64,000 nucleotides of DNA from an uncultured Desulfobacterales bacterium (GTDB taxonomy: Bacteria; Desulfobacterota; Desulfobacteria; Desulfobacterales; B30-G6), in contig CAYVMI010000024.1 of NCBI GenBank assembly GCA_964452555.1, forward strand, positions 11,250-75,249. Direction: 5' to 3'. The position numbers and the translations under genes were made by a program. The notes below the pieces were generated by a model. It saw nothing but the letters and a program-made list of their open reading frames with translations, ran no database searches and had not been told where the DNA came from. Below are positions 5,745 to 51,861 of the stretch, piece by piece. The stretch's first letter is position 1. Each line of letters opens with the position of its first letter.

Positions 5745-6641
5745 ATGTCAATCCATCCATTTGAATACCATGCACCCAAAAGTCTATCGGAAGCTGTTGA
5801 GCTATGTGTCCGCCTGGGCTTGAATGCCAAAGTACTTGCTGGCGGTACCGATCTTTTGCCAGCCCTTAAATCCCGGACCGTCCGCCCAAAAGCCGTTATC
5901 AGTCTCCATGCCGTTAAAGACCTGAATTACGTGGCAAAAGAAAACGGCCACCTGCGGGTGGGTGCATTGGCCCTACACGCCGATCTGGCTGACAATTCGC
6001 TTATCAAGGATACCGTACCGATTCTGGCTCAGGCCTGCAATTTGATCGGCTCCTGGCAGATCCGCAACATCGCCACCATTGGCGGCAATCTGTGCAATGC
6101 ATCGCCGGTGGCAGACACAGCCGGCCCCTTGTTGGTGTTAGATGCTACCGTGATATTGCAAGGTCCCGAAGGTCGTCGAGAGATAACGGCACTCAATTTT
6201 TTTACCGGACCCGGTACCACTGATCTCAAACCGGGTGAACTTTTAAAGGAAATACGTATCCCCTTGCCAGGTACCGGGTCGGCTGGATGTTATTTGAAAC
6301 TGATGCGCCGTAAGGCGCTTGATCTGGCTTTAGTCGGGGTAGCCATTCAAGCAGAACCAGACCATGTAAACGGAACACTTGGGGAAATCGCCATTGCGCT
6401 GGGCGGTGTAGCGCCCACACCTATACGTGTACCTGAGGCGGAGAATTTGCTGACTGGGCTGGACTACACTGCCGCCAGAAAAGCTGTACCCCAGGCCGCG
6501 CAGACAGCGGTGGCGGCCTGCAATCCCATCTCCGATGTGCGGGCCTCGGCCGAATATCGTCGTAGTATTACTGAAATGTATGTGACCAAAGGACTCACGG
6601 CATTGCTCGAAACCCTGGAGAAAAGGAGCACCTCATCATGA
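5745..6641 (+). CDS. Molybdo-hydroxylase (xanthine dehydrogenase/CO dehydrogenase family) FAD-binding medium subunit
   Basis: CoxM/XdhB-like: LAGGTDL, ATIGGNL and a C-terminal SDVRASAEYRR motif. Translationally coupled to the next gene (ATGA overlap). Confidence 0.85.
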   Translation: MSIHPFEYHAPKSLSEAVELCVRLGLNAKVLAGGTDLLPALKSRTVRPKAVISLHAVKDLNYVAKENGHLRVGALALHADLADNSLIKDTVPILAQACNLIGSWQIRNIATIGGNLCNASPVADTAGPLLVLDATVILQGPEGRREITALNFFTGPGTTDLKPGELLKEIRIPLPGTGSAGCYLKLMRRKALDLALVGVAIQAEPDHVNGTLGEIAIALGGVAPTPIRVPEAENLLTGLDYTAARKAVPQAAQTAVAACNPISDVRASAEYRRSITEMYVTKGLTALLETLEKRSTSS

Positions 6642-7126
6642 AAATCCCTCTCAATATTACGGTAAACGGAGAGAAGCTCAAGCTGGCAGTTGAGCCCCAG
6701 CACACCCTGTTGGAGGTTATCCGCCAGGAATTGGGATTGACAGGTGCCAAAGAAGGCTGCGGTGTGGGCGAGTGCGGGGCCTGCACCGTGCTGCTGAACG
6801 GCCGGCCGGTGGACTCGTGTCTGGTTTTGGCACTCCAGGCCGAAGGGGCCGAGATTGTCACCATCGAAGGATTAGCCAAAGGTGAGCAGGCCGATCCTTT
6901 GCAAACCGCCTTTGTGAAAAAGGGCGCCGTACAATGCGGTTTCTGTACACCCGGAATGATCCTGACTTCCAAAGCTTTATTGAAACAATCTGCCAATCCG
7001 GAAAGGGAGGAAATCAAGCAGGCCCTGTCGGGAAACTTTTGTCGTTGTACCGGATATAACAAGATTGTAAATGCGGTGCAGTTTTGTGCCCATTCGCCGA
7101 CCAAGAAGGAGGCTCCCCATGACTGA
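6638..7126 (+). CDS. Molybdo-hydroxylase [2Fe-2S]-binding small subunit
   Basis: Contains CGVGECGACTV and QCGFCTPG...CRCTGY, the two 2Fe-2S cysteine clusters. Confidence 0.9.
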   Translation: MKIPLNITVNGEKLKLAVEPQHTLLEVIRQELGLTGAKEGCGVGECGACTVLLNGRPVDSCLVLALQAEGAEIVTIEGLAKGEQADPLQTAFVKKGAVQCGFCTPGMILTSKALLKQSANPEREEIKQALSGNFCRCTGYNKIVNAVQFCAHSPTKKEAPHD

Positions 7127-9407
7127 TTTCGACGTTATCGGCAAACCCATCCCTCAGATTGCCGGAATGCAAAAAGCCATGGGGCGCACCCGGTTCGTCT
7201 CCGATCTGGCGCTGCCCTACATGCTCCACGGAGCGATTCTGAAAAGCCCGCATGCCCACGCGCGCATTACAAGGTTGGACACCTCCCGGGCAAAGCGTGT
7301 GCCCGGTGTGCAGGCGGTTATCACTTTTGCCGACACGCCGGGAATCAAGTATGGCCCCCGTTCCGAAGACTGGTACATTTTTGCCAAAGACAGGACGCTG
7401 TTTCACGGTCATGAAGTGGCGGCTGTCGCTGCCGTGGACCCGAAAACAGCGGCGGAAGCGCTGGAGTTGGTCGATGTCGAGTACGAGCCCCTACCGGCGG
7501 TGATCGATCCTCGCAAAGCCCTTGAGGAGGGAGCGCCGCTGGTCATCGAGGAGAAGGGCGACAATCTGGCTTTTGAATTTAAAATCGATTCCGGGGAAGT
7601 CGACCGGGCCCTGGATGAATCCTATTTCGTCTACGAGGACCACTACTACACCAATCAGGTCTACCAGGCCTACCTGGAACCCATGGGCTGTGTGGCCGAA
7701 ATGGACCTTAATGGGCGTTATATTCTCCACACCGGGACCCAGATCCCCAACATGATGCGCATGACCTACGCCAAGGCTTTGGGCGTACCTGCGGACCGAA
7801 TTCGGGTAAAGGTGCCCGAATATGGTGGTGCCTTTGGGGGCAAGATGGAGCACAATATCCATCTTATCGCTGCGTTGCTCTCCCAAAAAGCAGGTCGACC
7901 GGTGCGATTGTTTTACAACCGCCATGAGGATTTTATCGCCGGAAATCCCCGGGTACCCATGCATTTTGATATCAAGCTGGGGGTGGACAAAAACGGACGC
8001 ATCACGGCCAAGGATGTTCAAGTGGTTGGTTCAGCCGGTGCCCGCCTGGTATACGGCCACATTATCCTGATGACAGCCTGCTATCGGGTGGATTCGCTGT
8101 ATAAATTTCCCAATGTTCGTGCGCTGGGATTAACGGCCTACACCCACACCGTTCCCACGAGTTGTTATCGAGGATTCGGCAATGCCCAGGCCACTTTCGT
8201 TCTGGAATCGAGCTTGGACATGGTGGCTGAAAAACTGGGCATGGATCCGGCTGAACTGCGGCTAATCAACGATTTGGGTCCCGATTCCACCTCCATTCAT
8301 GGTTGGAAGATCAATTCCAACGCTCTGGCTGATTGTATCCGTTCGGCCACGACCAAAGCCGATTGGCAACGTAAGCGAGCAACAAAAAAACCGTTACGCG
8401 GCATCGGCCTGGCCTGCTGTAACCATGTGTCCGGCAACCGGCCCTTTGCCCGCGAGTTTGACGGCGGCGCCGGAATCGTTCACGTGGGCCGCGACGGCCG
8501 GGTTACGGTTTTCCACGGAGAATCAGACATGGGTCAGGGCCAGAACACTGTTTTTGCCCAAATAGCGGCTGAGCGCCTCGGGGTCCCGCTTGATTACATC
8601 AGTGTGGCCATGGTGGATACAGACATCAGTCCTTTTGGCTGCGGCAGTTTCGCTACCCGCGGAACACTGATGGGTGGTAATGGGGTACTAGCGGCGGCCG
8701 AGGACGCCTTTAACCAGCTGGCGAAGGTAGCCGCCGATCTGCTTGAAACCGATCCGACAAACGTCAGGTGCCGCAAGGGAAAATTTTTCTCCACCGGGGC
8801 ACCCGATCAAACCGTGGATTGGTATGCCGTAGCCGATCAAGCCGCCATCGCCCGCAAGGGAGCTCCAATCATGGGACAGGGATTTTATGATCCGCCCACG
8901 GTCCTGCCTGATCCGGAAACAAAATACGGCAATATATCACCGGCCTACCCTTTTGCATGCCAGATTGCCGAAGTGGAAGTCGACCCGGACACCGGGCAGG
9001 TGACGGTGACTAGTTTCGTCGCCGCGCATGATGTGGGACGGGCCCTGAATCCCATGGCGCTGGAAGGCCAGATTCAAGGCGGTGTGGCTCAGGGCATGGG
9101 TTGGGCCTTGACGGAAGACATGGCCTACGATGAAGATGGACGCCTGCTCAATCCCGATTTTGTGGACTATGTGGTGCCGGGCCCCCTGGATGTCCCTGAG
9201 ATTGAAACCATCCTGGTGGAACCCGTTGAAAAGGAAGGGCCATACGGCGCCAAAGGAATCGGTGAACCGGCACTCAACCCCGCCATGGCCGCGATTACCA
9301 ATGCGATTTACAATGCTACCGGCATCAGGTTTAAAACCTTGCCTGTTTCACCTGAAAAAATGCTCAATGAGCTTAAACGGCAAAATGAAAAGATAGAAAA
9401 CAAATAG
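7119..9407 (+). CDS. Molybdo-hydroxylase molybdopterin-binding large subunit
   Basis: Aldehyde oxidase/xanthine dehydrogenase a/b-hammerhead and MoCo domains (GGAFGGK, YRGFG, C-terminal GIGEPA). Start placed at ATG 7119 behind RBS GAAGGAGG rather than the track start 7071. Confidence 0.9.
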   Translation: MTDFDVIGKPIPQIAGMQKAMGRTRFVSDLALPYMLHGAILKSPHAHARITRLDTSRAKRVPGVQAVITFADTPGIKYGPRSEDWYIFAKDRTLFHGHEVAAVAAVDPKTAAEALELVDVEYEPLPAVIDPRKALEEGAPLVIEEKGDNLAFEFKIDSGEVDRALDESYFVYEDHYYTNQVYQAYLEPMGCVAEMDLNGRYILHTGTQIPNMMRMTYAKALGVPADRIRVKVPEYGGAFGGKMEHNIHLIAALLSQKAGRPVRLFYNRHEDFIAGNPRVPMHFDIKLGVDKNGRITAKDVQVVGSAGARLVYGHIILMTACYRVDSLYKFPNVRALGLTAYTHTVPTSCYRGFGNAQATFVLESSLDMVAEKLGMDPAELRLINDLGPDSTSIHGWKINSNALADCIRSATTKADWQRKRATKKPLRGIGLACCNHVSGNRPFAREFDGGAGIVHVGRDGRVTVFHGESDMGQGQNTVFAQIAAERLGVPLDYISVAMVDTDISPFGCGSFATRGTLMGGNGVLAAAEDAFNQLAKVAADLLETDPTNVRCRKGKFFSTGAPDQTVDWYAVADQAAIARKGAPIMGQGFYDPPTVLPDPETKYGNISPAYPFACQIAEVEVDPDTGQVTVTSFVAAHDVGRALNPMALEGQIQGGVAQGMGWALTEDMAYDEDGRLLNPDFVDYVVPGPLDVPEIETILVEPVEKEGPYGAKGIGEPALNPAMAAITNAIYNATGIRFKTLPVSPEKMLNELKRQNEKIENK

Positions 9408-12796: not shown

Positions 12797-14230
12797 ATGA
12801 AACCGATTATTCAATTTTTATCCGACCAAGAAGTTGAGATTCTGCACGTCCAATCGTTGAAAATCTTAAAAGAAATTGGCATGCGCCTGCCCCACGATGA
12901 AGCCATTGAGCTCTTATCTCAACATGGAGTTGAGATCGTGGATAAAAATGTGGTGCGGTTTCCTGAGGAATTGGTCTCCAGCACCATTAAAATGCTGCCC
13001 AAACTGAAAGACGTCACCCTGTACGGGCGGGACCCCAAACATGATGTCACTTTTGACAAACACGAACCAGCCTTGGCCTGCATGACCATGGCGGTAAACG
13101 TTATTGATCCGTATACGCGCCTTAAACGGCCGGCCACCAACGATGACTTGGCGGTTTTGACACGCATGGCTGATGAACTGGAAAATATTCGCGTAAACGG
13201 CGGTCTGGTGACACCGCAGGAAGTCCCCAAAAATTTCAACGACTGGTACACTTGGGCCACCACCATTAAAAATACGAGTAAGCATATCACCGGCGGGATG
13301 CTGGGAGCCAGCTGTGTCCAAGACGCTGCAAAAATGGCGGCCATTGCGCTCGGGGATGAGGAGCACTTCTATGCCAGGCCATTCATTTCCGGCTGGGTTC
13401 TGACCCTGCCGCCCCTTGGAATCGATGCGGAGTCCCTGGAGGCCTTGATGGAAATGAGCCGCATGAACATACCGGCCATCGTCAGCTCCGGCCCCATACT
13501 GGGGACTTCTTCTCCAGTGACCATCGCCGGTACTGTTGCCCAGGCCCACGCTGAAATCCTGGCCTGCATCGTTGTCTCTCAGTTAGTGAACCCGGGTGCG
13601 CCTATTGTCTATACCAGTTTTGCCCGCGGAATCGACATGAAGAGCGGTAATATTTCCATGGCATGCCCGGAATTTGGGATTTTGAAAGTTGCCATGGCTC
13701 AAATGGGAAGATATCTTGACCTGCCGGTACGCATGCCCGCTTTGCTGCGGGATTCCAAAACTATTGATGCTCAGGCCGGATACGAAACCGGCATGATTGG
13801 AACCGTAACCGGTCTAACGGCCGACCTCATGGATGCCATGCAGTTGGATATGGATTTGGTGGTGGATTTCCCTGATCTGGTTTTTTGCAATGAATGCATG
13901 GCCGGTATCAGCCGTATGGCCAGAGAATTGAAAGTAAATACAGAATCGCTGGCCCTGGAGGCCATAGCAAATGTCGGTCCTGGAGGTACTTTCTTAAGTC
14001 ACCCCCATACTTACGATAATTTTCGCAAGGAGCTATGGATACCATCTTTCATGGAACGCAGAAATTGGGACTTGTGGGAAGCGGACGGGGCCCTGGACAT
14101 ATTCAAAGTTGCTGAAAAGAAAACCCTTGAAATGCTGGAGCAAAAACCACTCACCTTGCTGTCAGAAGAAATTGAAAAGCAAATCGATACAGTCGTAGAG
14201 CGGGCCCAAGCCAAACACACTGAGCCTTAA
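12797..14230 (+). CDS. MttB-superfamily methyltransferase, non-pyrrolysine type (complete)
   Basis: 477 aa, uninterrupted, with no in-frame TAG. Full-length similarity to ORFs 2-1177 and 50398-51861. Confidence 0.9.
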   Translation: MKPIIQFLSDQEVEILHVQSLKILKEIGMRLPHDEAIELLSQHGVEIVDKNVVRFPEELVSSTIKMLPKLKDVTLYGRDPKHDVTFDKHEPALACMTMAVNVIDPYTRLKRPATNDDLAVLTRMADELENIRVNGGLVTPQEVPKNFNDWYTWATTIKNTSKHITGGMLGASCVQDAAKMAAIALGDEEHFYARPFISGWVLTLPPLGIDAESLEALMEMSRMNIPAIVSSGPILGTSSPVTIAGTVAQAHAEILACIVVSQLVNPGAPIVYTSFARGIDMKSGNISMACPEFGILKVAMAQMGRYLDLPVRMPALLRDSKTIDAQAGYETGMIGTVTGLTADLMDAMQLDMDLVVDFPDLVFCNECMAGISRMARELKVNTESLALEAIANVGPGGTFLSHPHTYDNFRKELWIPSFMERRNWDLWEADGALDIFKVAEKKTLEMLEQKPLTLLSEEIEKQIDTVVERAQAKHTEP

Positions 14231-15933: not shown

Positions 15934-17172
15934 TTAAACAGTATGGATATCAAATTCCATTAAAACCACCTGTGTCAATTTTTTAAGAATTTTTGAAGAT
16001 AGATTGACTGTGATTTCCTTTTTTCTTCCATACCGCCCTTTCGATAAAAGCCGCGCCTGGATAAATCCATACATATCTAATTCGGAAACCAAATCAGAAA
16101 AAGCCCGTTGGGTAAGAGTCTTGAGATCAGCTTTATCGCAAAAGGAACAATATATTGCATAGGCCTCGCCGGTATATAATGGTTTGGCACTTATTGAATT
16201 TCTGGAAATAATTGAATACAAAACAGCCTGAAGTTGCTTCGGGCTTGATTTAATCATCGCGACATATTTATCTTTCTCTATTTCCTCCAAGGCCTTATCC
16301 AAAAGGTCTAACGATATTGCTGTCCCCTCTTTTTCAGCCATGTGAGATGATTTTGATAACAGTTCGACAGCCTTTCGTGCATCTCCATGTGTTCTGCTGG
16401 ATATAGCGGCGATTTTATCAACAACACCCTCTTCTATAAATTTTTCATTCAGGGCCTTTTTTATTCGTAATGAAAGAATTTTCTGGAGATCACAGGCATT
16501 ATAAGGCTCGAACAACAGTTCATTTATCTTTAAAAAAGATTTAATACGCGGATCAACATTATCCTGCCAATTCAGTCTATTTGAGGTGAACACAATCAGC
16601 AGCTTCGCTGATATTTTTTGTGGCAACCGTTTTACAATAAATTTTAAAAAGCTATCCAAATCACGTTTGATATGATCGATTTCGTCTATAAAGAGGATTA
16701 AATAGCCTTTGTAATCAACGATTTTTTCCTCAATCTTGCTCATCAATTCATCCAGAGATATTCCCTTTTTATATCGCTTTGCTGCGTTTAGAAAACAGGC
16801 AAGGTCATTTAATGCGCGAAAACATGGTTTGGGCGTAGATAGATCAAGATGGATATATTTCATGTTGATTTTTCGTTTTTCACACAGCGACTGGAACAAA
16901 TTTAGGAAATAAAGCATGGTTACTGTTTTGCCTGCACCGGTTTTTCCAAGGAGTGAAAGATGGATGGGATGATCATTTCGAAAGATAGGTGCGAAGTGGG
17001 AGCTTAATTCACGGATTTCTCTATCCCTGACATCAATATCGAAAATTTCACGTAATACCTCAAATTGCTCTTCTCGATGCAGTTGCTCATCATCTAAATA
17101 TTTTCTGTTCTTGATAATCGTGTTTTTAAGAAGAGTTTTTATTTGTTTTTCGATTTTTATTTCAACATCCAT
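15934..17172 (-). CDS. Orc1/Cdc6-type AAA+ ATPase with C-terminal winged helix
   Basis: Walker A GKTGAGKT, Walker B LILFIDEIDH, sensor-1 VFTSN, sensor-2 GDARKAVELL. C-terminal LTQRAFSDLVSELDMYGFIQARLLSKGRYGRKKEI matches the Cdc6 winged-helix signature. Confidence 0.85.
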   Translation of the reverse strand: MDVEIKIEKQIKTLLKNTIIKNRKYLDDEQLHREEQFEVLREIFDIDVRDREIRELSSHFAPIFRNDHPIHLSLLGKTGAGKTVTMLYFLNLFQSLCEKRKINMKYIHLDLSTPKPCFRALNDLACFLNAAKRYKKGISLDELMSKIEEKIVDYKGYLILFIDEIDHIKRDLDSFLKFIVKRLPQKISAKLLIVFTSNRLNWQDNVDPRIKSFLKINELLFEPYNACDLQKILSLRIKKALNEKFIEEGVVDKIAAISSRTHGDARKAVELLSKSSHMAEKEGTAISLDLLDKALEEIEKDKYVAMIKSSPKQLQAVLYSIISRNSISAKPLYTGEAYAIYCSFCDKADLKTLTQRAFSDLVSELDMYGFIQARLLSKGRYGRKKEITVNLSSKILKKLTQVVLMEFDIHTV

Positions 17173-20741: not shown

Positions 20742-22223
20742 TCAGGGCAAAATAGAAATACGAAGATAATAAAGGAAAATAAGAGATAACCATCCCATAT
20801 CTACAGGCACTTGATATAGCCGTCCAGGTGCAAAACGAGCTTTAATATGGCGCATTCCGGGTACGATCACGCGTACAACCGATACCCCGGCCGCAGGTGG
20901 AGTATAATCCAACACGAAAATTGGTCGCCCTTTTTGTTTGCCTATTGAGGTGCATAAATGCAGCTTTTCTTTCAAGTTACCTGGTTGGGCCAAAAATCGG
21001 TCCACAGCTTTTGGCGATCTCATTTTACCGGGTTGCATTTGGGGGTTATTTTTAATGAAATCACTTTGGGCCCACAAAATAAAGTTGCGTGCAGATTGAT
21101 CCAAAGATTCTAATCCACCGACGTCAATTTGTTTTTGTATGATCCGTTTGAGTGCGTGTACCTGCAGCATCTCACGCACTGCAGATTTGAGAGCTGATAA
21201 GTAATCGAAGTTTGCACCAAACCCCATGTCAATATCTGATTCATCACTGTTCATCGAAATTGCAGCAATCACGGGAATACCGAGATCATGGGTCAAGTCC
21301 AAAGCATAAAACCGACGATCCAATATTTCCAGCCAGCGCAGGCAACCATCTAATTCCGTATCCCTAAAATATTCTGGATCTATTGCCGGGCGGATGATCC
21401 GATTGTACCACCAAATCCCCACGGCGTCCCTTTCCACCACTTCCAGAAATCCCGAAACAATGGCTTCCTTACGCGTGGGGCCTGCGGCACAGCCATTGCT
21501 ATCGGCGATCAGATAATTTCGATCGTGGGGACAATGCAGATAGCAAAGTCCGGCGGGAACAAAATACGGTTTTCCTTCTGGATAGGAAGATACCTCAACC
21601 CAATCCAAAAGGTTATCGCTCCGGACGGGGTAAGGAACGCGATGCCGCTCTCCGAATTGGTTGTCCCGGACGTTCCTTTCTTGATATTGACGTTCACTGA
21701 AAAGAAGGAACTGATGAGGGTGAAGGCCTTTAGTACCTAATTCGCTTTTTTTTGCCCTGGTGATTTTAATATCCTCACGCCAGGTGATGGCCATCGTCTC
21801 CACCAGTTCTCCCAGAGCAGTTAAGATCCCTGTTTGGGGGGTAAATTCTGAACCGGCTGTATATATGTCTTGTTTCGCTAAATCATTTTCTTTTCCTCCG
21901 GACTTGATGTCTGGTTTTTTGGGGATTGCGGCGTAACTGAAAATTGGAAAATCATCATCGGGATTGATTGATACCAGCGCCCGAAGGCATGGTTCACAGG
22001 TCCTACAAACTGATCGGAATTGTTTTGCTAATTCATTTGACTGCCATTCTACTACCGTATTAGGATCAAAGTCTTCAGCAACGATTAGATTCCAATCGCT
22101 TAAAGCATAAAGAACATGGTAAACCTCTTCAGATTCAAACGATTCGCAAAGTTTGCGAACGATGTCTTGTACCGTGCGATGACCGTTAATCAATGCAGCA
22201 ACTTTAACAAGCATATGATTCAA
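20742..22223 (-). CDS. YcaO-domain protein (ATP-dependent peptide backbone-modifying enzyme) with an extra ~110-aa N-terminal region
   Basis: SNGCAAGPTRKEAIVSGFLEVVERDAVGIWWYN is the YcaO core. The VVRVIVPGM...RFAPGR tail is also YcaO-like. N-terminal LINGHRTVQDIVRKL...VYHVLYAL resembles the helical part of PqqD-like RRE domains. Confidence 0.85.
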   Translation of the reverse strand: MNHMLVKVAALINGHRTVQDIVRKLCESFESEEVYHVLYALSDWNLIVAEDFDPNTVVEWQSNELAKQFRSVCRTCEPCLRALVSINPDDDFPIFSYAAIPKKPDIKSGGKENDLAKQDIYTAGSEFTPQTGILTALGELVETMAITWREDIKITRAKKSELGTKGLHPHQFLLFSERQYQERNVRDNQFGERHRVPYPVRSDNLLDWVEVSSYPEGKPYFVPAGLCYLHCPHDRNYLIADSNGCAAGPTRKEAIVSGFLEVVERDAVGIWWYNRIIRPAIDPEYFRDTELDGCLRWLEILDRRFYALDLTHDLGIPVIAAISMNSDESDIDMGFGANFDYLSALKSAVREMLQVHALKRIIQKQIDVGGLESLDQSARNFILWAQSDFIKNNPQMQPGKMRSPKAVDRFLAQPGNLKEKLHLCTSIGKQKGRPIFVLDYTPPAAGVSVVRVIVPGMRHIKARFAPGRLYQVPVDMGWLSLIFLYYLRISILP

Positions 22224-36966: not shown

Positions 36967-39372
36967 TCATGCGACGATTTTATTTAACTCAGCGTGGACG
37001 GCGTAGCCGATTTTCTTGAGGGTATATGGTTTGCGGATATAGGCACCGGCACCAAGCCTCTGGGTTTCCTTGACCCGTTCGGTTTCAGAGAAACCGCTGG
37101 CGATAACGGCCTTCTGATCAGAATTTACTTCCAATATTTTCCGATACGTTTCCAGGCCATCCATTCCCGGACCCAATATCATGTCCAAAACCAATAAATC
37201 AAATAGATCCCCATTTTTGATACAATCCACCGCAGCTTCACCGGTGGAAACGGCCTTGACTTGATATCCGAAGACTTCCAGCATTTTGGAGGCGATTTCA
37301 CGCTGCTCCCGTACATCATCAATCACCAGGATTTTTTGTCCCCGGCTCATTAAATCATCCAGCGATAAATCCGAAACGGTTTCCTGATTCGTTTTCCTGG
37401 TGACAGGCAGATAAACCTTGATGGATGTCCCCTTATTCAATTCACTGAGAATATCAATATAGCCATTATGGTCCTTAACCGTCCCCCACACCACTGCCAT
37501 ACCCAATCCGGTGCCGCTGCGTCCCATGGATTTCTTGGTGTAAAACGGCTCGAAAATGCGCTCCAGATCCTCATCTGATATACCGATGCCGTTATCCGAT
37601 ATGGAAATGACGATATAATCACCTTCGGCCACATCATCGTAGCCCTGGATAGCGGTATCGACGTATTGGTTTTTAGTTTGAATAAGCAATTCGCCGCCAT
37701 CGGGCATGGCCTCGAGTGCATTGATGATCAGATTCATGATCGTTTTGGATAAATGTACCGGCGAACCCAGCATATTTAGGATCTCTGAATTTAGTTCGGT
37801 CCGGACGTGAACGGCTTTATGATAACTTTTTATTTTTTTAAACTCGGGACTCTCTAAAAAATCCTGGATCAGCGTATTAATATGGACTAGTTCAGTGACT
37901 TTAATGCCGCTGCGCGAAAGCGTCAGTAGGTCATTGACAATTGTTGCCGCCTTTTCGCCGGTTTTCTTAATTGTCAGGATTGGTTTGCGCAAAGGACTGG
38001 TGCGGGGAAGATCCAGCAGCATCAATTCCGGATAGCTGATGATACCGGATAAGATGTTGTTCAGATCATGTGCCACCCCGCCGGCCAGCAGACCAATGGC
38101 TTCCATTTTTTTGGCCCGGTGCAGTTTAGTCTCCAGCTCCAGACGCTCGGCTTCCGAATTGACCTTATCCTCAATTTCTTTTTTCAGCTTTTGGTTGGCC
38201 AATTCAAGATCGGCGGTCCTTTCGCGTACTTTTGCTGCCAGCTGACTGCGGGCCCTTTTAAGGCTCTTGATCTGGATGTCGATCGTTTGGGCCATGGAAT
38301 TGAGCGCTCTGAAAATGAGTTTGAATTCCTCGTAGTCATTCGCTGCAACCTCGATCGAATAGGTAATATCCTTCTGGATCTTGTTGGTTTCCCGGCGCGT
38401 GCGCACAAAGGCGGACATGATCCTGTATACATATAATGTTAGGCCCACAATGATAATTAAAAAAACCGAGATTGAAATGATTTGAATCGCCAACAGCCAT
38501 TTGCCTAATTGCCGGCGCCTCGCTTGGATTTGTTCCCGTTCTTGCTGGAACGTTTCCGCCTGTGCCAGCGAATTTTGGATCATTTGTTTGGAGATCGCAG
38601 CGAATTCGATCTCTCCCGTCAGGAGTACCGTAAAGGCTTTTTCAAACATTCTGCCGGTGATAAGCAGCTCCTCCACCAACAGCCCGTCCTGGGCATCCAA
38701 CGAGTAATCTTCGAAGGTATTAACCGAATCATAGAAATGCTTTATATTATCTTGAAACTCTTTTTTAAGTATGGAGGGCTGTTCAGTTACATTAAGTTTA
38801 TAAAAGATTGAAAAAACGTCCAGAAGCTGGTTCTGGATTGTGACGGCCGCATTGACGATTTCCAGTTCCGGTGCCGCCTTCACGGAACTGCGTTTAAATT
38901 CCTCACTTGTATCCCAATCCTGGGTGGTATGCCCGCGTCGCAACAAATTCTTTAAATAGACGATGTGATGTTCATGGATGTAGCGGACGCTTTCAACCAT
39001 GCTGGGCATTAAGTTACGAACAATATTGTGTTGATCTTCAATGCGCATATTCAAATCAAGCAAGGTATTAAAAAGCTTTGAACGCTGATCCAATAAAACC
39101 ATGTTTTCGCCGAAACCGATCTCACGGGCTTCGGTTTTGATATTCTGATATAAATTGATAACCTGAATGCCGGTATCCGGGTTATTTAAGGCAATCCTTT
39201 CCTTCAATACAGCCGCTGAAAATTCTTTTTCCAGACCCAGAATCTGATGATAGGTTGTGTCGGCCTTTTTTTCGATATAATTAAAATAAAGAGTCAACAG
39301 GTATAAACCGCTCAGTAAAACAATTGCGGTCATGAACATCTGAAGATTCGATTTGATCGACTTGAATTTCAT
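36967..39372 (-). CDS. Hybrid sensor histidine kinase/response regulator (membrane sensor, HisKA, HATPase, REC)
   Basis: H-box GGVAHDLNNILSGI, N/G boxes (NALEAM, DNGIGI, GTGLGMA) and a C-terminal REC (ILVIDD...DLLVLDMILPGMDG). Start set at ATG 39372. Confidence 0.85.
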   Translation of the reverse strand: MKFKSIKSNLQMFMTAIVLLSGLYLLTLYFNYIEKKADTTYHQILGLEKEFSAAVLKERIALNNPDTGIQVINLYQNIKTEAREIGFGENMVLLDQRSKLFNTLLDLNMRIEDQHNIVRNLMPSMVESVRYIHEHHIVYLKNLLRRGHTTQDWDTSEEFKRSSVKAAPELEIVNAAVTIQNQLLDVFSIFYKLNVTEQPSILKKEFQDNIKHFYDSVNTFEDYSLDAQDGLLVEELLITGRMFEKAFTVLLTGEIEFAAISKQMIQNSLAQAETFQQEREQIQARRRQLGKWLLAIQIISISVFLIIIVGLTLYVYRIMSAFVRTRRETNKIQKDITYSIEVAANDYEEFKLIFRALNSMAQTIDIQIKSLKRARSQLAAKVRERTADLELANQKLKKEIEDKVNSEAERLELETKLHRAKKMEAIGLLAGGVAHDLNNILSGIISYPELMLLDLPRTSPLRKPILTIKKTGEKAATIVNDLLTLSRSGIKVTELVHINTLIQDFLESPEFKKIKSYHKAVHVRTELNSEILNMLGSPVHLSKTIMNLIINALEAMPDGGELLIQTKNQYVDTAIQGYDDVAEGDYIVISISDNGIGISDEDLERIFEPFYTKKSMGRSGTGLGMAVVWGTVKDHNGYIDILSELNKGTSIKVYLPVTRKTNQETVSDLSLDDLMSRGQKILVIDDVREQREIASKMLEVFGYQVKAVSTGEAAVDCIKNGDLFDLLVLDMILGPGMDGLETYRKILEVNSDQKAVIASGFSETERVKETQRLGAGAYIRKPYTLKKIGYAVHAELNKIVA

Positions 39373-39377
39373 ATTGA

Positions 39378-40181
39378 TTATTGAGGTGTTTCCGTCTGAT
39401 ACCCCGCTTTGATCCAACCTCGCATACCAAACAACAGGCCATATACATTTTTATAGCCATACTTGGATAAAAATTGCATCGCAAATTTGTCACGGTTACC
39501 GGTTTCCGTAACCGTGACAACCAGGCCGTCTTTCGGTATCTGTTTTCTGACTTCGGCTTTTTGCAGATCGTCCAACAAACAGAAAATGAGGGGGCAGTCG
39601 CTTTGGATGATGGGCGGTCGCCGGACATCTTTTAACTGGTGTTCGGTTCTTAAGTCCAGCAAGGTTACATTCGGAATACCGGCCTCGTTTGTACAGGTAT
39701 CCTCCACCGGGGTTAATTTGGAGAGCACCTCTTTTGCGGTTAGAAATTGACTTTTATATTGCGGCAGAGGTTCCAGCGTTTCAATCTTGAATTCGGATTT
39801 TATCCAATCTTTTAAACCACCGTTATAGATCCGTATGTTTTTATACCCGTATTTCTTGGCGGCAACTGCCGTCTTGTAGGCAAATACTCACCGATAACCC
39901 ATTCAGTACATGACCAGCAATTTGTTCAGATCTTTACCTGCCCGCTGAATCGTATCCTCGAAGCGGCTCCAGGGAATATTGACTGAGCCTGGGATCGAAC
40001 TGTTGCGAAAAATAATTTCGTCCAGAGTATTGATGAGAGCAAATTCAAGCTGCCCCAGCTCCCTTTGGGCCAGCATATTTACCAATTCTTCGGTGGTCAC
40101 AATTTCAAAGCGTTCCAGGGCCATGGCCGAAAATCCGGAAAATATCAGTAACACGACAGATGCCAGGATAGCATTTTTCAT
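39378..40181 (-). CDS. Secreted tandem-rhodanese protein with two in-frame TGA codons in the first active-site loop (candidate selenoprotein, or a recent pseudogene)
   Basis: One frame is open from ATG 40181 to TAA 39378 apart from TGA at 39903-39905 and 39888-39890. It reads ..KLLVMY-TGA-MGYR-TGA-VFAYKTAVAAKKYGYKNIRIYNGGLKDW.., and the first TGA sits where rhodaneses carry the catalytic Cys. The N-terminus is a signal peptide. The second domain is Cys-less (TETGNRD). Confidence 0.5.
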
Positions 40182-40444
40182 GTATAGCTCCAGTTAATAT
40201 GGCTATCTATTGATTAAAATGAAGGGGTCGCTCTGAATTCAAATCAAATTTCAATAGATCAATTGCATTTGATTTGCAAGTTGTAACTGCTTCGGGCGGA
40301 GACAAATCTAATGCTTGGATTATTGCCGGACATCTAATCATTGTCTGATTTAATCCAGATGGCCAATCAGCCCTCCAGTTGCTTTTCGAACTTTGCCAGA
40401 TATTTTTTGGTTTCCACGAGGGTGGTAACCGATGGGAATTATAT

Positions 40445-42418
40445 CTAAGAGCTGGTATCCGTGATGATTTCCTGAATCTTTTGGGATAGGTTCTGGACAG
40501 TAAATGGCTTTTGGATAAATCCGTTGCAGCCCCGGGCCATAATCTCGGCAGCCTGACCGTCGAGCGTATACCCACTGGAAAGTATCACCGGAATTTCTGG
40601 CCGCACCCTGCGGATATGATCAAAGGTAAGACCACCGTCCATTTCCGGCATAATCATATCTAAAATTATCAAATCAATAGCGGTACCCTTATCCTGAACG
40701 ATCTCTATGGCCCTCAATCCACTCTCAGCCTTAAGAACGGAATAACCCAACTTTATGAGCATGGCGCCGGATACATCCAGTATCATTTGCTCATCATCAA
40801 TCAGCAGAATCGTCGCGCTTCCCTGCGTAATTTTCTGGGGTGCGGTATGGGTAGACGCCAGTTGTTTATCAGAAAGGGGAATGTAAATATTAAAAGTGGT
40901 ACCCTCATTAATCCGGCTGTCTACCGATATAATGCCGCCGTGATTTTTAATGATGCCATAGGCCGATGCCAGGCCCAAACCAGTTCCCGCGCTTTTATCT
41001 TTGGTGGTAAAAAAAGGATCGAATATCCGCTGTCGCGTTTCTCTATTCATGCCAATGCCGGTATCGGTCACCGATATTTTGGCAAATCGACCCACTTCGA
41101 GATTGTGAGCGCTACAAAGTTTTTCGTTCATCCTGACAGCCGATATTGCTAGAGATAGCTCACCGCCTGTCGGCATAGCCTGCCAGGCATTGACATATAG
41201 ATTCAATAAAACCTGTTCTATTTGCGATCGATCAGCTTCAACAACGATCAGGTCCGGTGCCGCCTTAATATGAATGCGGATCTCTTTACGGGTACGACCA
41301 AACATATTGGCACTGTCGGTCACCAATTGATTGAGTTCGATGGGTTTGACCTCATATTTGCCGCCACGCACAAAACCGAGCAATTGATTGGTCATATCCA
41401 CAGCGCTTTTAGTATAATCATGAATGGCCTGGATGTGCTCGTTTAGGGGTTCAGAGCCATCCACTTCGAGCGACATCAGGGATGCACGCCCCAGAATACC
41501 CATTAACAGATTATTGAAATTGTGGGCGATCCCGCCGGCAAGTGTCCCGATGGCTTCCATTTTATGGGCTTGTTTTAACTCGTTTTCCATCCGTTTTAAA
41601 TCGGTGATATCGGTGGCAATCTGCAAGCGTACCAGACGCCCGTCTGTCCATTCAATCGCCCGATCGTAATTGCTGTACCATTTGTCCGTAATCGGATTTT
41701 CTCCTTGCCAGATGTACACACCGGTTGGCCGGCCGGTTTCATCGATCAGGCGATCATTGGAGCAGTGGTCACAGGGTCCGGTTTCATTGCGGAATACCTG
41801 ATAGCAAATTCTGCCGGTCAAATCCTGACCAAACGAATCAATCATATGCTTATTCATGAAAAGAATTTCATAGGATTGCATATCAGCCACGTAAATCGTC
41901 GCGTCGATACTATCCAAAACAGTGAGAAATCGGACGTGTGACAACTTTAAGGCTTCTTGGGCGCGTTTGCGATCAGTTATATCAATGATAACCCCTTCAG
42001 TATAACCTTTATCCGGATAGGCCGTGGCGCTCAATGCGATCTGAATCGTAGACCCATCTGAACACCGCATTTCGGTTTCAAATCCATCCACCTTGCTGTG
42101 CTTTTCGAGCATTGCCATGAGTTCGCTGCGCCGTATGGGATCAACATACTGCTTAGAGGTCACAAACTCCGTCACAAATTTTTCAACTGACTGATAACCC
42201 ATCATATTGGCTAATGTTCGATTGGCGGCCAGAAGTTTTCCATCATTGAGACGCGTGCGGTAAATCCCCACCATGGCCGTATCAAACAACTGGCGATATA
42301 GTTTTTCTTTGGCTTCGAGTCGCGCTAACTTTTTTAGCAATTCTGATTTAGTCGGTTCCGTCGTCATCCACTGATTCCTTAGCTGAATATCAATTGATTG
42401 CGTCTTGTAGCGAGCCAA
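40445..42418 (-). CDS. PAS-domain hybrid histidine kinase/response regulator
   Basis: Two PAS-like segments, H-box GGIAHNFNNLLMGI, HATPase (DTGIGM, GTGLGLA) and REC (ILLIDDE...DLIILDMIMPEMDG). The track start is TTG 42418; ATG 42367 is an alternative. Confidence 0.85.
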   Translation of the reverse strand: MARYKTQSIDIQLRNQWMTTEPTKSELLKKLARLEAKEKLYRQLFDTAMVGIYRTRLNDGKLLAANRTLANMMGYQSVEKFVTEFVTSKQYVDPIRRSELMAMLEKHSKVDGFETEMRCSDGSTIQIALSATAYPDKGYTEGVIIDITDRKRAQEALKLSHVRFLTVLDSIDATIYVADMQSYEILFMNKHMIDSFGQDLTGRICYQVFRNETGPCDHCSNDRLIDETGRPTGVYIWQGENPITDKWYSNYDRAIEWTDGRLVRLQIATDITDLKRMENELKQAHKMEAIGTLAGGIAHNFNNLLMGILGRASLMSLEVDGSEPLNEHIQAIHDYTKSAVDMTNQLLGFVRGGKYEVKPIELNQLVTDSANMFGRTRKEIRIHIKAAPDLIVVEADRSQIEQVLLNLYVNAWQAMPTGGELSLAISAVRMNEKLCSAHNLEVGRFAKISVTDTGIGMNRETRQRIFDPFFTTKDKSAGTGLGLASAYGIIKNHGGIISVDSRINEGTTFNIYIPLSDKQLASTHTAPQKITQGSATILLIDDEQMILDVSGAMLIKLGYSVLKAESGLRAIEIVQDKGTAIDLIILDMIMPEMDGGLTFDHIRRVRPEIPVILSSGYTLDGQAAEIMARGCNGFIQKPFTVQNLSQKIQEIITDTSS

Positions 42419-42712
42419 ATGCGGCTTCTTCCTGGAATGCTATCTGGTTTAATTTATCAGGGACAGCGGCAATGAGTTCCGCAGGAGCTTCAACCTCCAA
42501 AGCATCCTTACAGGGAGCGACGGCCTGCTCCCACAGATCACCGCACTGTTTTATCCTAAGGGCTACTTCCTGCAGTCCGCTGTTGACATTGATATTAGCG
42601 GCTTCATGGGTATTTGTCTATTCCAAGCGAGTAATGCGGACAACAAGTACTGCGGAAACAGTGGTCTAGATATGGGCGCGATACCTGTAATTGTCGATGT
42701 CCGATTAATTAT

Positions 42713-45010
42713 TCACCCTTGCGCCAGTTCATTTTTCACGGCGAGGCCCAGTTCTTCCAATGTAATCGGTTTCTTGATGTACTGGCCCGCGCCCAGTCTC
42801 TGGGTCGCACGCACATCTTCGGTCTCTGCAAAACCACTGACGATTATGGCGCTTTGATTCGGATGTATCTTTTTTATGCGTTCATAAGTTTGACGGCCGT
42901 TGATTCCCGGATCCATGATCATATCCAGTAATATTAAATCCGCCTTATTATGCTTCATAAAATCGACGGCTTCCTCGCCACTGGCGGCAGTATTGGTATT
43001 ATAACCCAGGGTTTGCAGCATTCTGCTGGATATCTCCCGTTGGGTGTCCACATCATCCACAACCAGAATAGTTTCGCCGTTTCCTTTGAGATCCGCCAGC
43101 GGAGTGGCAGAATTTGTATTCAAAATCTGGTCCCGGGTAATGGGCAGGTATAAGTCAAACCTTGTTCCCTTATGATCGCTTTTAACATCGATGTAACCCT
43201 TGTGGTCCAGCATGATGTTCCAAACAACCGCCAAGCCCAGGCCGGTTCCGCTGCGTCCCATGAATTTTTTTGTATAGAAAGGCTCAAAGATCCGTTCAAG
43301 GTCCTCCGGGGATATGCCGGGACCGTCATCGGCAACGGTCAAAACCACATATTCACCCCGGCTGACATTGTCATACCCGCTTAAGGGCCTGTCCAGATAT
43401 TGGTTCTTGGTTTCAATACGGATTAGGCCGCTGACATCGGCTGCCTCCGCGGCATTTGAAACCAGATTCATCAGCACCTTGCTGAGATGAATTGCCGAAC
43501 CGTTGATGTTCATCAGATCCTTGCTGAGACCGGTTTTTACCTTGACGTTGGGGTGATACTGCTTCAGTTTATAATACTCCGGCGATCGTAGATAATTCTC
43601 CACGATATCGCTAATATTTAACGGTTCTCTGTTGATGGCCACACCCCTGGCCACGGTGAGCAGATCCTGAACAATGGCCGTGGCCCGGTGCCCGGACTCC
43701 TTGATGGTCTCGATCGGTTCCTTTAATTTGCTGTCTGCGGGCAAATCCATCAGAATAAGCTCCGGGTAGCTGACAATGCCGGACAATACGTTGTTCAAAT
43801 CATGGGCAACGCCGCCGGCCAAAAGCCCCAATGATTCCATTTTGTTGGATCTGGCCAGCTTCTCTTCACTCTCGCGCAGTACCCTCTCGGCTTGCTTCTG
43901 CTGGGTGATATCGCGGGTGACGCCTAATATGCTCGGCGGTTCATTTGCGTTTCCCGGTAAGATTCTCGCCATGTTACCGGTTTGGATCACCGAACCTCCT
44001 TTGCAGTATTGCTCCACCTCAAAATAGACCGGCTGAAATCCCTTGGGGTCATTGGACTCTGCCAGGGCCAGTTTCTCTGTAAATAGATTCATCACTTTTT
44101 CGAGCGAATCGGACGGCAGAACTTCCTCTAGTTTCTGCGCCATCGCCTCCGCCATTGTAAAACCCCGCATGCTGCGAACAGATGGACTGATATAGGTAAA
44201 CTTCAACTGCATATCCATGGTCCATATAATGTCGGCCACATTTTCAGCTATCAGACGATAGCGCCGCTCACTGTCTCTCAAGGCATCTTCCGTCTGCTTG
44301 CGTTCCGATACCTCCTGTTCCAGCTCGTTTTTTAAATCCACTAATCGCGAATGTTCCTTTTTCAAGATATTGGTCAGGTCTCTTTCCTTTTGCTGGGCCG
44401 ATAAGAGCCCCTTAACCAGTACAGCCACCGACATGGCTGCAACCGCATTCAACAGAATGAAACTGGCACCTGCCGTTATCATATGTTTGATACTGTCAAA
44501 AAAGACGAAATCCTGACCGAATGAACCTGTTTCCGTTAACCAACCGATAATAATTAATGTGATGGCATTGATGATAATGGCTGCCATGGCAGGCTTCAGT
44601 CCCATCAGGATTCCCACAAACACCGGAAAGGCAAAAAGCCAGGCCGGGCCACCACTGAGAATCCCCACGGAAAGGATAATAAAGACCCCCACCACATAAA
44701 AGATAAGCAAAGTTGCCGCAGCCCGTAATTCATAACTGGGTCTGCGCGCCAACATTATGCTGAGAGCATAAAACCATGCGGTAATATCAAAGATCATCAG
44801 TGTCCACAATTTCTGCTCAATCGCTAACAAAATTAGTGGTACGAGTGCCACCAACCCGATCAGCAGGCCTGAAAAAATAATTGTAAACAGAATACGGGCA
44901 CGCCAATAGGCAAGGCTGTTTTTTTCCAAAGCGCCTAAAGGAACCATCCGCTGCATGGCGAAGGTTTGGAACCTTTGGAAAAGAGATATGTTAATTTTAT
45001 TCAGAGGCAT
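42713..45010 (-). CDS. Membrane-anchored PAS hybrid histidine kinase/response regulator
   Basis: Polytopic N-terminus, PAS, H-box GGVAHDLNNVLSGI, HATPase and REC (ILVVDDV...DLILLDMIMDPGING). Confidence 0.85.
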   Translation of the reverse strand: MPLNKINISLFQRFQTFAMQRMVPLGALEKNSLAYWRARILFTIIFSGLLIGLVALVPLILLAIEQKLWTLMIFDITAWFYALSIMLARRPSYELRAAATLLIFYVVGVFIILSVGILSGGPAWLFAFPVFVGILMGLKPAMAAIIINAITLIIIGWLTETGSFGQDFVFFDSIKHMITAGASFILLNAVAAMSVAVLVKGLLSAQQKERDLTNILKKEHSRLVDLKNELEQEVSERKQTEDALRDSERRYRLIAENVADIIWTMDMQLKFTYISPSVRSMRGFTMAEAMAQKLEEVLPSDSLEKVMNLFTEKLALAESNDPKGFQPVYFEVEQYCKGGSVIQTGNMARILPGNANEPPSILGVTRDITQQKQAERVLRESEEKLARSNKMESLGLLAGGVAHDLNNVLSGIVSYPELILMDLPADSKLKEPIETIKESGHRATAIVQDLLTVARGVAINREPLNISDIVENYLRSPEYYKLKQYHPNVKVKTGLSKDLMNINGSAIHLSKVLMNLVSNAAEAADVSGLIRIETKNQYLDRPLSGYDNVSRGEYVVLTVADDGPGISPEDLERIFEPFYTKKFMGRSGTGLGLAVVWNIMLDHKGYIDVKSDHKGTRFDLYLPITRDQILNTNSATPLADLKGNGETILVVDDVDTQREISSRMLQTLGYNTNTAASGEEAVDFMKHNKADLILLDMIMDPGINGRQTYERIKKIHPNQSAIIVSGFAETEDVRATQRLGAGQYIKKPITLEELGLAVKNELAQG

Positions 45011-50397: not shown

Positions 50398-51861
50398 ATG
50401 CAGCCCCAACGACTCGAATTTCTAAGTCCGGAAGAAGTAGAAAGCATTCAAAACAAGACCCTCGAAATTCTTGAGAGAACAGGCATCAAGGTCAATCTCA
50501 AAAAGATGCGAGATTTACTGGCCGATCATGGCTGCCGGGTGGATCCCAAGACCCATATCACCAAATTGCCGCCGTCATTGGTGCAGTCTGCCATTCAAAA
50601 GGCGCCCACAGAATTTGTCATCCATGGCGCTGATCCCGACATGCGTTTTCCCATCGGCCCGGGAAAGCGGGTCTGGTCCGGTCTGGGCACTGCCTTTCGC
50701 ATGCTGAACATCGAAGACGGTAGCCATTCAGACGCCACCCATCAGGATGTTGCCACCCATTTAATTCTCTTTGACCACCTGGACAATATCTCCTGTAATC
50801 AGATGGACGTCTGGGCCCAGGATCTGCCCATGCATACCATCCATGTGGAAGCCTTACGCACCTGGGCATTGGAGTGCCGGAAATCCATCGGGATGGGTGC
50901 TTACGGCGTTATGGCCACTCAGGACATGATGGAGATGATCTCCCTGATTCGGGGCGGTCGCGATCAAATGAAAAAATTTCCGCCTTTCTGCGGCATTGTG
51001 AGCATCGAGAGCCCCCTGTCCAGCACCCAGGCGCAGCTGGAAGGCATGATCATTCTGGGGGAGCATGGCATGCCGGCGCTGCTCTCACCCGAGGCCATGG
51101 CTGGTACCACGGCACCGGCGCCCCTGGCCGGTCTTTTGTTGCAGCATAACGTGGAGATCATCGCGCATGTGGCCATGGCTCAGATTGCCAATCCAGGCGC
51201 ACCGGTCATGTATGGAACGGTTTCGACAATAGCCGATTTAAAAACCGGTTCCCCGGCTCTGGGTTCAATTGAGACCGGCATGATCAGCGCTGCTTCGGCT
51301 CAGCTAGCGCGGTCGTATGGTTTACCGGTTCGTACCGTCGCCGGCGCCACCGAATCCAAGTTGCTGGATGTTCAATGTGGGTTTGAAAGAGCCCAATCCA
51401 TGCTGCTGGCGGCCATGGCCGGTGCCAACTACATCACCTGCATCGGAACCTTGGAATCCACCAACCTGGGTGCGCATGAAATGGCGGTTATCGACAATGA
51501 GATCACCGGCAGGGTAGACCGGGCCCTAAGGGGCATTCACGTGGACGATACCATGCTGGCGGCGGAAGATATCCAGCGGGTAGGTCCGGGCGGTAACTAC
51601 TTAATGGAGCCCCTGACTTTGGAGAGCTTTAAACAGGAGCATTTCATTCCTTCGGTTTCCGATCGGGATCAAATGGAGGCCTGGAAAACGGCCGGCAGTC
51701 CGGGCATTGCCGATCATGCCCGGGCCGAAGTGGCCAGGATCCTAGCCGAGCATCAACCCAGAGAGCTGGATCCCAAACTGGTGCGGGAACTGGACAACTA
51801 TGTGGCGATGGTCCAAAAACGCAGCATCACCGATTTTGAAGCGGCGGAATGGGAATCATAG
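50398..51861 (+). CDS. MttB-superfamily methyltransferase, non-pyrrolysine type (complete)
   Basis: 487 aa, uninterrupted. Similar throughout to ORF 12797-14230. Confidence 0.9.
   Translation: MQPQRLEFLSPEEVESIQNKTLEILERTGIKVNLKKMRDLLADHGCRVDPKTHITKLPPSLVQSAIQKAPTEFVIHGADPDMRFPIGPGKRVWSGLGTAFRMLNIEDGSHSDATHQDVATHLILFDHLDNISCNQMDVWAQDLPMHTIHVEALRTWALECRKSIGMGAYGVMATQDMMEMISLIRGGRDQMKKFPPFCGIVSIESPLSSTQAQLEGMIILGEHGMPALLSPEAMAGTTAPAPLAGLLLQHNVEIIAHVAMAQIANPGAPVMYGTVSTIADLKTGSPALGSIETGMISAASAQLARSYGLPVRTVAGATESKLLDVQCGFERAQSMLLAAMAGANYITCIGTLESTNLGAHEMAVIDNEITGRVDRALRGIHVDDTMLAAEDIQRVGPGGNYLMEPLTLESFKQEHFIPSVSDRDQMEAWKTAGSPGIADHARAEVARILAEHQPRELDPKLVRELDNYVAMVQKRSITDFEAAEWES

Follow-up and report, generated by a model that had tools for sequence, protein, structure and literature searches.

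The stretch analysed here (hereafter the window) comprises 64,000 nucleotides (nt) of contig CAYVMI010000024.1, positions 11,250 to 75,249, from assembly GCA_964452555.1 of an uncultured Desulfobacterales bacterium. On its minus strand lie two adjacent genes whose features are collected in Table 1. The upstream gene, a single reading frame of 268 codons with TGA at codons 93 and 98 as its sole interruptions, is predicted to code for a secreted tandem rhodanese in which both TGA codons (UGA1 and UGA2 in the messenger) are read as selenocysteine (Sec, written U in the motifs below). The downstream gene encodes a hybrid sensor histidine kinase, the start codon of which lies 5 nt past the TAA stop of the rhodanese gene.

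Table 1. Features of the rhodanese and sensor genes (window coordinates)
Feature	Position	Strand	Description
Selenoprotein gene (predicted)	39378..40181	-	267 residues and TAA stop; signal peptide, rhodanese domain 1 with U-x4-U loop, rhodanese domain 2
Signal peptide MKNAILASVVLLIFSGFSAMA	40119..40181	-	predicted cleavage before LERF; by inspection
UGA1, codon 93	39903..39905	-	predicted Sec at the catalytic-Cys position; TGA 26/47, TGC/TGT 21/47
UGA2, codon 98	39888..39890	-	predicted Sec, five residues past UGA1; TGA 47/47
Outer stem GUAUUU/AAAUAC around the hairpin	39849..39887	-	window- or lineage-specific
Putative selenocysteine insertion sequence (SECIS) core hairpin GACGGC-AGUU-GCCGCC	39858..39873	-	loop 39867..39864; 20 nt past UGA2, 35 nt past UGA1
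Span between domain-2 cysteines	39594..39695	-	C163 (39695-39693), C196 (39596-39594)
ETGNRD loop of domain 2	39489..39506	-	invariant; active-site loop position, Thr replacing the catalytic Cys (window TETGNRD)
Hybrid sensor histidine kinase	36967..39372	-	transmembrane segment, helical periplasmic domain (~270 residues), transmembrane segment, HisKA, HATPase, REC
Periplasmic all-helical sensor domain	38473..39282	-	motifs YIHEHH (38982-38965) and FEDYSLDAQDGLLVEELL (38715-38662)

Examination of the upstream gene bore out the original prediction, made from the sequence alone, of one frame broken by two TGA codons and by nothing else. Public gene callers split this gene into open reading frames (ORFs) of 92 and 116 amino acids, and pieces from the same family are recorded under the names 'rhodanese-like domain-containing protein', 'hypothetical protein' and '3-mercaptopyruvate sulfurtransferase SseA'. 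When Cys was put at both stops, the translated frame matched the Pfam family Rhodanese (PF00581) with E=4.4e-17 and 62.8 bits against a cut-off of 22.2; the match falls in two stretches, which identifies the product as a tandem rhodanese. The active-site loop of domain 1 reads ...KLLVMY-U-MGYR-U-VFAYKTAVAAKKYGYKNIRIYNGGLKDW..., the part downstream of the loop starting with VFAYKTAV. A hydrophobic leader ending in AxA before (M/L)ERF is present in all full-length homologues, and the window rhodanese is predicted on this ground to be exported to the periplasm. Both TGA codons are also found in two independent Logan assemblies from unrelated sequencing runs (SRR8146440 and SRR24302418), which match the window without a single mismatch over 779 nt.

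A protein search returned 107 relatives, most of them pieces of 160-180 residues that begin just past the second stop (VFAYK..., MFAYK..., MAVAIK...). A search with domain 1 gave the complementary picture, with dozens of database fragments of either 92 residues ending in ...TY or 96-99 residues ending in ...YCMGYR. A few full-length public calls carry Trp (W) at the stop positions, and the underlying DNA of two of them was found to be TGA/TGA (L001) and TGT/TGA (L002). Scanning GTDB with one genome for each species yielded 47 loci, distributed among Desulfobacterales, Desulfobulbales, Geopsychrobacteraceae, one Fundidesulfovibrio and a few unclassified bins, in which tblastn identity of 42-54% continues across both stops. 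Cultured carriers include Fundidesulfovibrio agrisoli SG106 with a U/U loop and, with a C/U loop, Desulfosarcina alkanivorans PL12, Desulfatibacillum alkenivorans DSM 16219, Desulfopila aestuarii DSM 18488 and Desulfogranum japonicum DSM 18378.

Codons were counted in 47 sequences with a readable loop: 44 of the loci from the genome scan, plus the window itself, L001 and L002. Position 1 (codon 93) is TGA in 26 sequences, TGC in 11 and TGT in 10, and position 2 (codon 98) is TGA in all 47, with neither TGC nor TGT; TAA and TAG occur at neither position. Two more loci, which had been missed by the search pattern, are of the C/stop and stop/stop types. At least eight changes between Cys and Sec were counted at position 1 by parsimony on a neighbour-joining protein tree, a rough estimate that gives a lower bound. 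Cys/Sec pairing among homologues is therefore complete for UGA1 and weak for UGA2, for which BH2092 of Bacillus halodurans, discussed below, is the only partner. The family motif can be written [U/C]-[MVIK]-G-[YHSFQ]-R-U-[VI]-[FYI]-[AS]-Y. In these 47 sequences the frame and domain 2 are conserved beyond both TGA codons.

The region downstream of the two TGA codons was analysed in a gap-free alignment of the 47 sequences with RNAalifold, which found one helix only, a 6-bp stem closed by a 4-nt loop AGUU or GGUC, or (A/G)GU(U/C) for the family. Standard pairs fill 95.7% of the alignment cells of the stem, and compensatory changes are seen at three stem positions, two of them GC/AU and one UA/CG; in one case the synonymous change ACG>ACA goes with GCC>GCU. 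None of 500 shuffles matched the observed covariation or pairing, and pairing collapses once the 3' arm is moved one or two columns along. In 43 of the 47 sequences, the minimum free energy (MFE) fold of the 39 nt past UGA2 includes the hairpin.

In the bacterial SECIS (bSECIS) consensus, as given by the bSECISearch model and summarised in PMC13188914, the loop is 3-9 nt long and carries, within its first two positions, a G that is followed by G or U; the stem has 4-16 bp, the loop stands 16-37 nt from the UGA and the MFE is -7.5 kcal/mol or lower. With G at loop position 2 followed by U, a 6-bp stem and a spacing of 20 and 35 nt, the family hairpin fits this model for both UGA codons, as had been anticipated from a G/U-containing loop at these distances. 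Local segments reach the energy threshold in 36 of the 47 sequences, the window doing so through a competing fold only; with z = -0.59, the window segment does not stand out in folding energy, and the thermodynamic test is uninformative. The hairpin first drawn for the window has thus been kept in part: its inner stem CGGC/GCCG and AGUU loop are present and conserved with covariation, whereas its outer stem, although found where it had been placed, is paired in 45.4% of the cells across the family and was rejected as a family feature. In the window, the composite of outer and inner stems has an energy of -5.6 kcal/mol, against -8.4 for the competing fold. A mini-hairpin UAC-AGGUGA-GUA considered for UGA1 was also rejected, being judged by inspection too near UGA1 to survive in the ribosome and not conserved.

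Alignment with homologues, which the original prediction had put forward as a check, therefore spoke in its favour: position 1 is either Cys or TGA, position 2 is always TGA and the hairpin is conserved. The invariance of TGA at position 2 and its presence in 26 of 47 sequences at position 1, the alternation with Cys and the covarying hairpin together lend strong support to a rhodanese with predicted Sec at both UGA codons. Judged from these comparisons, UGA2 is very probably decoded as Sec, and UGA1 probably so; a single hairpin is inferred to serve both.

Some further observations on the loop concern codon choice and individual loci. The Arg codon preceding UGA2 (alignment columns 16-18; window 39893-39891) is NGG in all 26 U/U genes (AGG 20, CGG 6), and in the one-UGA genes NGG is found in 11 of 21 and CGC or CGT in 10 of 21 (Fisher p ~7e-5, kinship being ignored). 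At the third residue after UGA2 (columns 28-30; window 39881-39879), U/U genes show a preference for Ala and C/U genes one for Ser. These biases could reflect an RNA or ribosome-pausing need for the decoding of UGA1, or co-evolution within the protein. The Trp residues in public calls P0001, P0003 and P0029 (TYWMGYRW...) are annotation artefacts that result from translating Sec TGA codons, and could mislead homology searches. One relative, P0083 (YCLGYPVDFAYK), has a divergent C-terminus and gives the impression of a decayed copy from which UGA2 was lost. Finally, L023, from a bin labelled Acidobacteriota, and L027, from Fundidesulfovibrio agrisoli, are sisters in the tree. Their modules, each with a GGDEF-EAL sensor, are near-identical (loops FY-U-VGSR-U and FY-U-MGSR-U), which points to a contig placed in the wrong bin or to a recent transfer.

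In sequence alignment with the tandem rhodanese 6mxv, U93 falls on the catalytic Cys (YCGGgFRS against YCMG-YRC). The placement of UGA1 at the catalytic Cys is upheld in this way. Compared with the canonical CxxGxR[ST], the loop lacks one residue and so departs from the CxxGxR originally assumed; U98 occupies the position following Arg. A residue-for-residue match with the U/C-x4-U motif is provided by BH2092 (3nhv/3o3w), in which the C-x4-C of ITYCWGPACNG aligns with it. A model of the C/U homologue P0003 gave a confident tandem rhodanese (predicted local distance difference test, pLDDT, 93.8; predicted template modelling score 0.86), and its best matches in the PDB were 6mxv overall and BH2092 for domain 1 (root-mean-square deviation ~1.9 A over ~110 columns, 27-28% identity).

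Domain 2 shows a likeness to Sud (1qxn), a polysulfide-binding protein of the periplasm. The domain had been described as Cys-less, which holds for its active-site loop, where Thr of ETGNRD stands, but not for the domain as a whole: C163 and C196 are invariant (Cys in 47 of 47 and 46 of 46 sequences, respectively) and possibly form a disulfide. Also noted was a paralogous tandem-rhodanese subfamily that has neither Sec nor Cys in its loop (SEGAGG, CEGASG or CKGHGS). The single context looked at was that of P0010 (SEGAGG; metagenome contig L050), where the paralogue adjoins fur and feoAB iron-uptake genes and has no such sensor next to it.

The association of the rhodanese gene with a sensor gene extends well beyond the window. 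In 46 of 48 loci a sensor gene on the same strand begins ~0-40 nt after the rhodanese stop, and the N-terminal 330 residues of the sensor are homologous across all 46. Three additional cases of this adjacency carry other outputs. Four output types are joined to this shared sensor domain: HisKA-HATPase(-REC) in most loci, GGDEF-EAL in L027 and L023, an HWE/HisKA_2 kinase in L055 and SpoIIE in L054, the rhodanese gene being found upstream of each type. Since the pairing is kept across kinase, cyclic di-GMP and phosphatase outputs, coupling at the level of the input is favoured over mere co-regulation. Other conserved neighbours of the rhodanese-sensor module were not found, the remaining clusters being antisense shadows or lineage-specific.

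The sensor domain is matched by no Pfam or NCBIfam model. Its invariant motifs are SVRYIHEHHI.YLKNL and FEDYSLDAQDGLLVEELL, and its cluster of His, Glu and Asp residues might constitute a metal or ligand site, or a docking surface for the rhodanese. An AlphaFold2 model of the domain is a long all-helical bundle (pLDDT 86.4), for which Foldseek returned the HBM domain of McpS and the sensor domain of TorS, including TorS-TorT complexes, with probability 1.0.

Taken together, these data are best explained by a secreted double-Sec rhodanese, decoded with the help of one SECIS element, that would act as co-receptor of the adjacent sensor; we place the probability of this overall reading at roughly 0.72. 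Both UGA codons would be read as Sec, giving the loop Y-U-M-G-Y-R-U in which U93 would replace the catalytic cysteine, and one hairpin would most likely recruit SelB and Sec-tRNA twice in succession. The Sec-Sec or Cys-Sec pair, five residues apart in the cradle-shaped rhodanese loop, could be redox-active or carry sulfane sulfur, as Cys-S-Se-Sec or Sec-Se-Se-Sec into which S or Se might be inserted, and perform selenium-sulfur chemistry on periplasmic sulfur or selenium species. The TorS-like domain may then read the state of this chalcogen pair, or that of the anion-binding ETGNRD site, as TorS reads TorT. The further proposition that the Sec/Cys-x4-Sec rhodanese is an obligatory co-receptor, reporting either reactive sulfur or selenium species of the periplasm by way of Se-S chemistry or, by way of its own Sec-dependent synthesis, the selenium supply of the cell, is offered tentatively and is, on balance, doubtful.

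Several observations weigh against a double-Sec co-receptor. None of selA, selB, selC, selD or a tRNA-Sec gene lies within the 64-kb window. No close relative has Cys at position 2 in ~100 sequences, those of the domain-1 search included, so that Cys/Sec pairing at that position is limited to the distant BH2092. The hairpin of the window is itself weak (-4.5 kcal/mol, with one A.C mismatch), and the local MFE structure of the segment is the competing fold at -8.4 kcal/mol. SECIS spacing is strict in E. coli, and UGA1, at 35 nt from the loop, stands at the far end of the published range. As for signalling, thiol/selenol exchange would find no conserved Cys in the sensor domain, and the Foldseek figures are weak (E 3e-3 to 2e-2, TM-score 0.46-0.58). 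A co-sensor role of the rhodanese for the downstream sensor draws on gene order and fold resemblance, and we consider its chances to be even.

The spacing of UGA1 and the weakness of the window hairpin, as well as the fact that RNAalifold detected no second hairpin or extended structure dedicated to UGA1 in the 47 sequences, would suit a gene in which UGA2 alone is a true Sec codon. UGA1 would then be inefficient, subject to near-cognate read-through as Trp or Cys, or mainly a site of termination in a low-output or regulatory variant. Such a role appears improbable, given that TGA at position 1 alternates with Cys codons only (26 against 21), with at least eight gains or reversions in what is a classic Sec/Cys signature, that the 26 species with TGA at position 1 keep the entire frame and that the spacing of UGA1 is inside the published range. 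Two stops within one active-site loop, in a gene that public callers split, might also recall a pseudogene, or sequencing or assembly errors; but these TGA codons recur in 47 loci belonging to different species, the downstream part is conserved with its invariant ETGNRD, C163 and C196, two independent assemblies agree with the window and the decayed copy P0083 looks different from the window gene, so that the likelihood of such an origin is close to nil. Hardly any weight can be given either to a reassignment of TGA to Trp or Gly in the host (genetic codes 4/25), to which the W found at these codons in P0001, P0003 and P0029 might point. Where W was called, the DNA has TGA; the carriers have genomes of Desulfobacterota type that use the standard code; and neither the alternation with Cys codons nor the conserved hairpin would be expected under reassignment. 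Moreover, of the window's 41 ORFs with 200 codons or more, 13 end in TGA, 17 in TAA and 11 in TAG, which shows TGA to be a normal stop in the host organism and confirms the argument by which reassignment had been excluded from the start.

With regard to function, the rhodanese could be a free-standing periplasmic enzyme, such as a polysulfide or thiosulfate sulfurtransferase or reductase or a selenium-handling protein, that the sensor merely controls or with which it shares an operon. The rhodanese fold with Sec or Cys at the catalytic position and the likeness of domain 2 to Sud are in line with this, and Geobacter has another periplasmic selenoprotein that acts on polysulfide (PMC13510729). 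We hold it to be rather unlikely, however: the pairing survives the swap to non-transcriptional outputs (GGDEF-EAL and SpoIIE), which are unable to regulate the operon directly, and the surroundings hold no conserved transporter, electron-transfer partner or other enzyme. A quite different role, with a low probability in our view, is that of a selenium-availability sensor, in which the full-length co-receptor would be made only when Sec-tRNA is plentiful and two UGA codons would steepen this dependence. A position-2 Sec that is never Cys in ~100 sequences is unusual for selenoproteins and would be expected if selenium itself matters, and the second UGA has been gained repeatedly in a gene coupled to signalling rather than metabolic genes. 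This role is purely inferential, though; one UGA suffices in 21 of 47 species, an invariant Sec is equally well explained by chemistry beyond that of sulfur, and no genes for Sec/Cys isoenzymes were seen beside the module.

The rhodanese-sensor module belongs to a row of three sensor kinases on the minus strand (36967-45010), the other two being a MASE11 hybrid kinase (42713-45010) and a PAS hybrid kinase (40445-42418). All three are hybrid kinases with receiver domains, and neither a response regulator with an output domain nor an Hpt protein was seen nearby. A scan for promoters and terminators around the rhodanese-sensor operon gave hits no more numerous than in shuffles, Rfam and tRNA scans of the window gave no matches, and no further convincing TGA-split gene was found within the window. 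The remainder of the window consists of unrelated metabolism genes. Among them are three MttB-family (trimethylamine methyltransferase-like) genes on the plus strand (2-1177, 12797-14230 and 50398-51861); as their ORFs are uninterrupted, they are likely to be of the non-pyrrolysine type. Also present are a YcaO gene (20742-22223) and, at 5745-9407, a set of genes for a molybdoenzyme of the xanthine-dehydrogenase family. A 412-amino acid ORF on the minus strand (15934-17172) matches Cdc6/Orc1 domains (AAA_22, Cdc6 lid and Cdc6 C-terminal winged helix), a combination of archaeal/eukaryotic type that is unusual in an otherwise deltaproteobacterial-looking window.

The family to which the window rhodanese belongs is systematically mis-annotated: RefSeq and metagenome calls consist of fragments of 92-99 and 160-180 amino acids, or have TGA translated as Trp. 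About 50 species-level genomes thus carry an unrecognised predicted selenoprotein, and no NCBIfam model captures the family. It offers a natural experiment on selenium versus sulfur, in which one active-site position has gone back and forth between Cys and Sec eight times or more next to a neighbour that is always Sec. With two Sec codons 15 nt apart and one short hairpin, it is also a compact system for the study of the spacing limits of SelB and SECIS. Co-reception, if true, would represent the first selenoprotein-dependent signalling input as far as our literature search showed, and would give a handle on the sensing of polysulfide, thiosulfate or selenium by sulfur-cycling anaerobes. Within the searchable literature, it found nothing relevant on a rhodanese selenoprotein linked to a sensor or histidine kinase and nothing usable on selenium-dependent gene regulation in Desulfovibrio, and the deep-Sep paper does not mention rhodanese.

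Selenoproteins of the rhodanese-like kind have long been known, and five forms of them (UxxS, UxxG, CxU, UxxG and UxxxxU) are distinguished in a 2026 review (PMC13188914). The UxxxxU form, 'rhodanese-like form 5', is TsoB (NF045694), a rhodanese/DsbD fusion-like protein with two Sec residues credited to Haft & Tolstoy 2025 (PMC13188914), so that a U-x4-U pair, contrary to what had originally been supposed, is not without precedent. TsoB is the best NCBIfam match of the window protein and shares with it a rhodanese domain with a U-x4-U double Sec. The match (E=1.4e-12) joins residues 24-138 to positions 42-161 of the 572 in the profile. TsoB has ~572 residues with a DsbD-like membrane part, whereas the window protein is a soluble tandem rhodanese of 267 residues that lacks this part, and TsoB is found in a multi-selenoprotein cluster rather than beside a sensor gene. 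With 46.5 bits, far under the cut-off of 805, and without the fusion architecture, the window protein was not retained as a TsoB.

The rhodanese-related LYCAU family (NF041203) has a CxU motif, and a UxU variant was reported from symbionts of Olavius (PMC1976440). It is, like the window family, a rhodanese-fold selenoprotein of Deltaproteobacteria with a Cys/Sec pair in the active-site region, in which a second Sec has evolved beside the first. Its spacing (CxU/UxU against U/C-x4-U) and its single domain of 126 profile positions are different, and assignment of the window protein to LYCAU was rejected on a score of 43.4 bits against a cut-off of 115 and on the other motif. By profile score and, for TsoB, also by its listed description, the window protein is a relative of both TsoB and LYCAU and a member of neither. 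BH2092, with its C-x4-C alignment, is the best single-domain structural match; it has Cys at both positions, consists of one domain that is presumably cytoplasmic and is a structural-genomics protein without described function.

On the side of the sensor, the closest parallels are TorT-TorS (3o1h/3o1i/3o1j) and the HBM domain of McpS (2yfa), the periplasmic domain of the window sensor being modelled as a long helical bundle that may resemble theirs. In TorS the signal is brought by a separate periplasmic protein encoded alongside, as is proposed for the window sensor. The latter has no detectable sequence similarity to TorS or McpS, and its partner would be a rhodanese selenoprotein instead of a periplasmic binding protein. 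As to the decoding signal, loop (GGUC in some of the homologues), stem and spacing agree with the consensus bacterial SECIS; the points of difference are the shortness of the hairpin and the fact that there is seemingly one for two UGA codons 15 nt apart. While the U-x4-U rhodanese motif is already known from TsoB, the near-universal coupling to an undescribed TorS-like sensor domain is new, and the invariant Sec beside a position that toggles between Cys and Sec, like the two UGA codons apparently served by one minimal SECIS, makes the family more interesting still.

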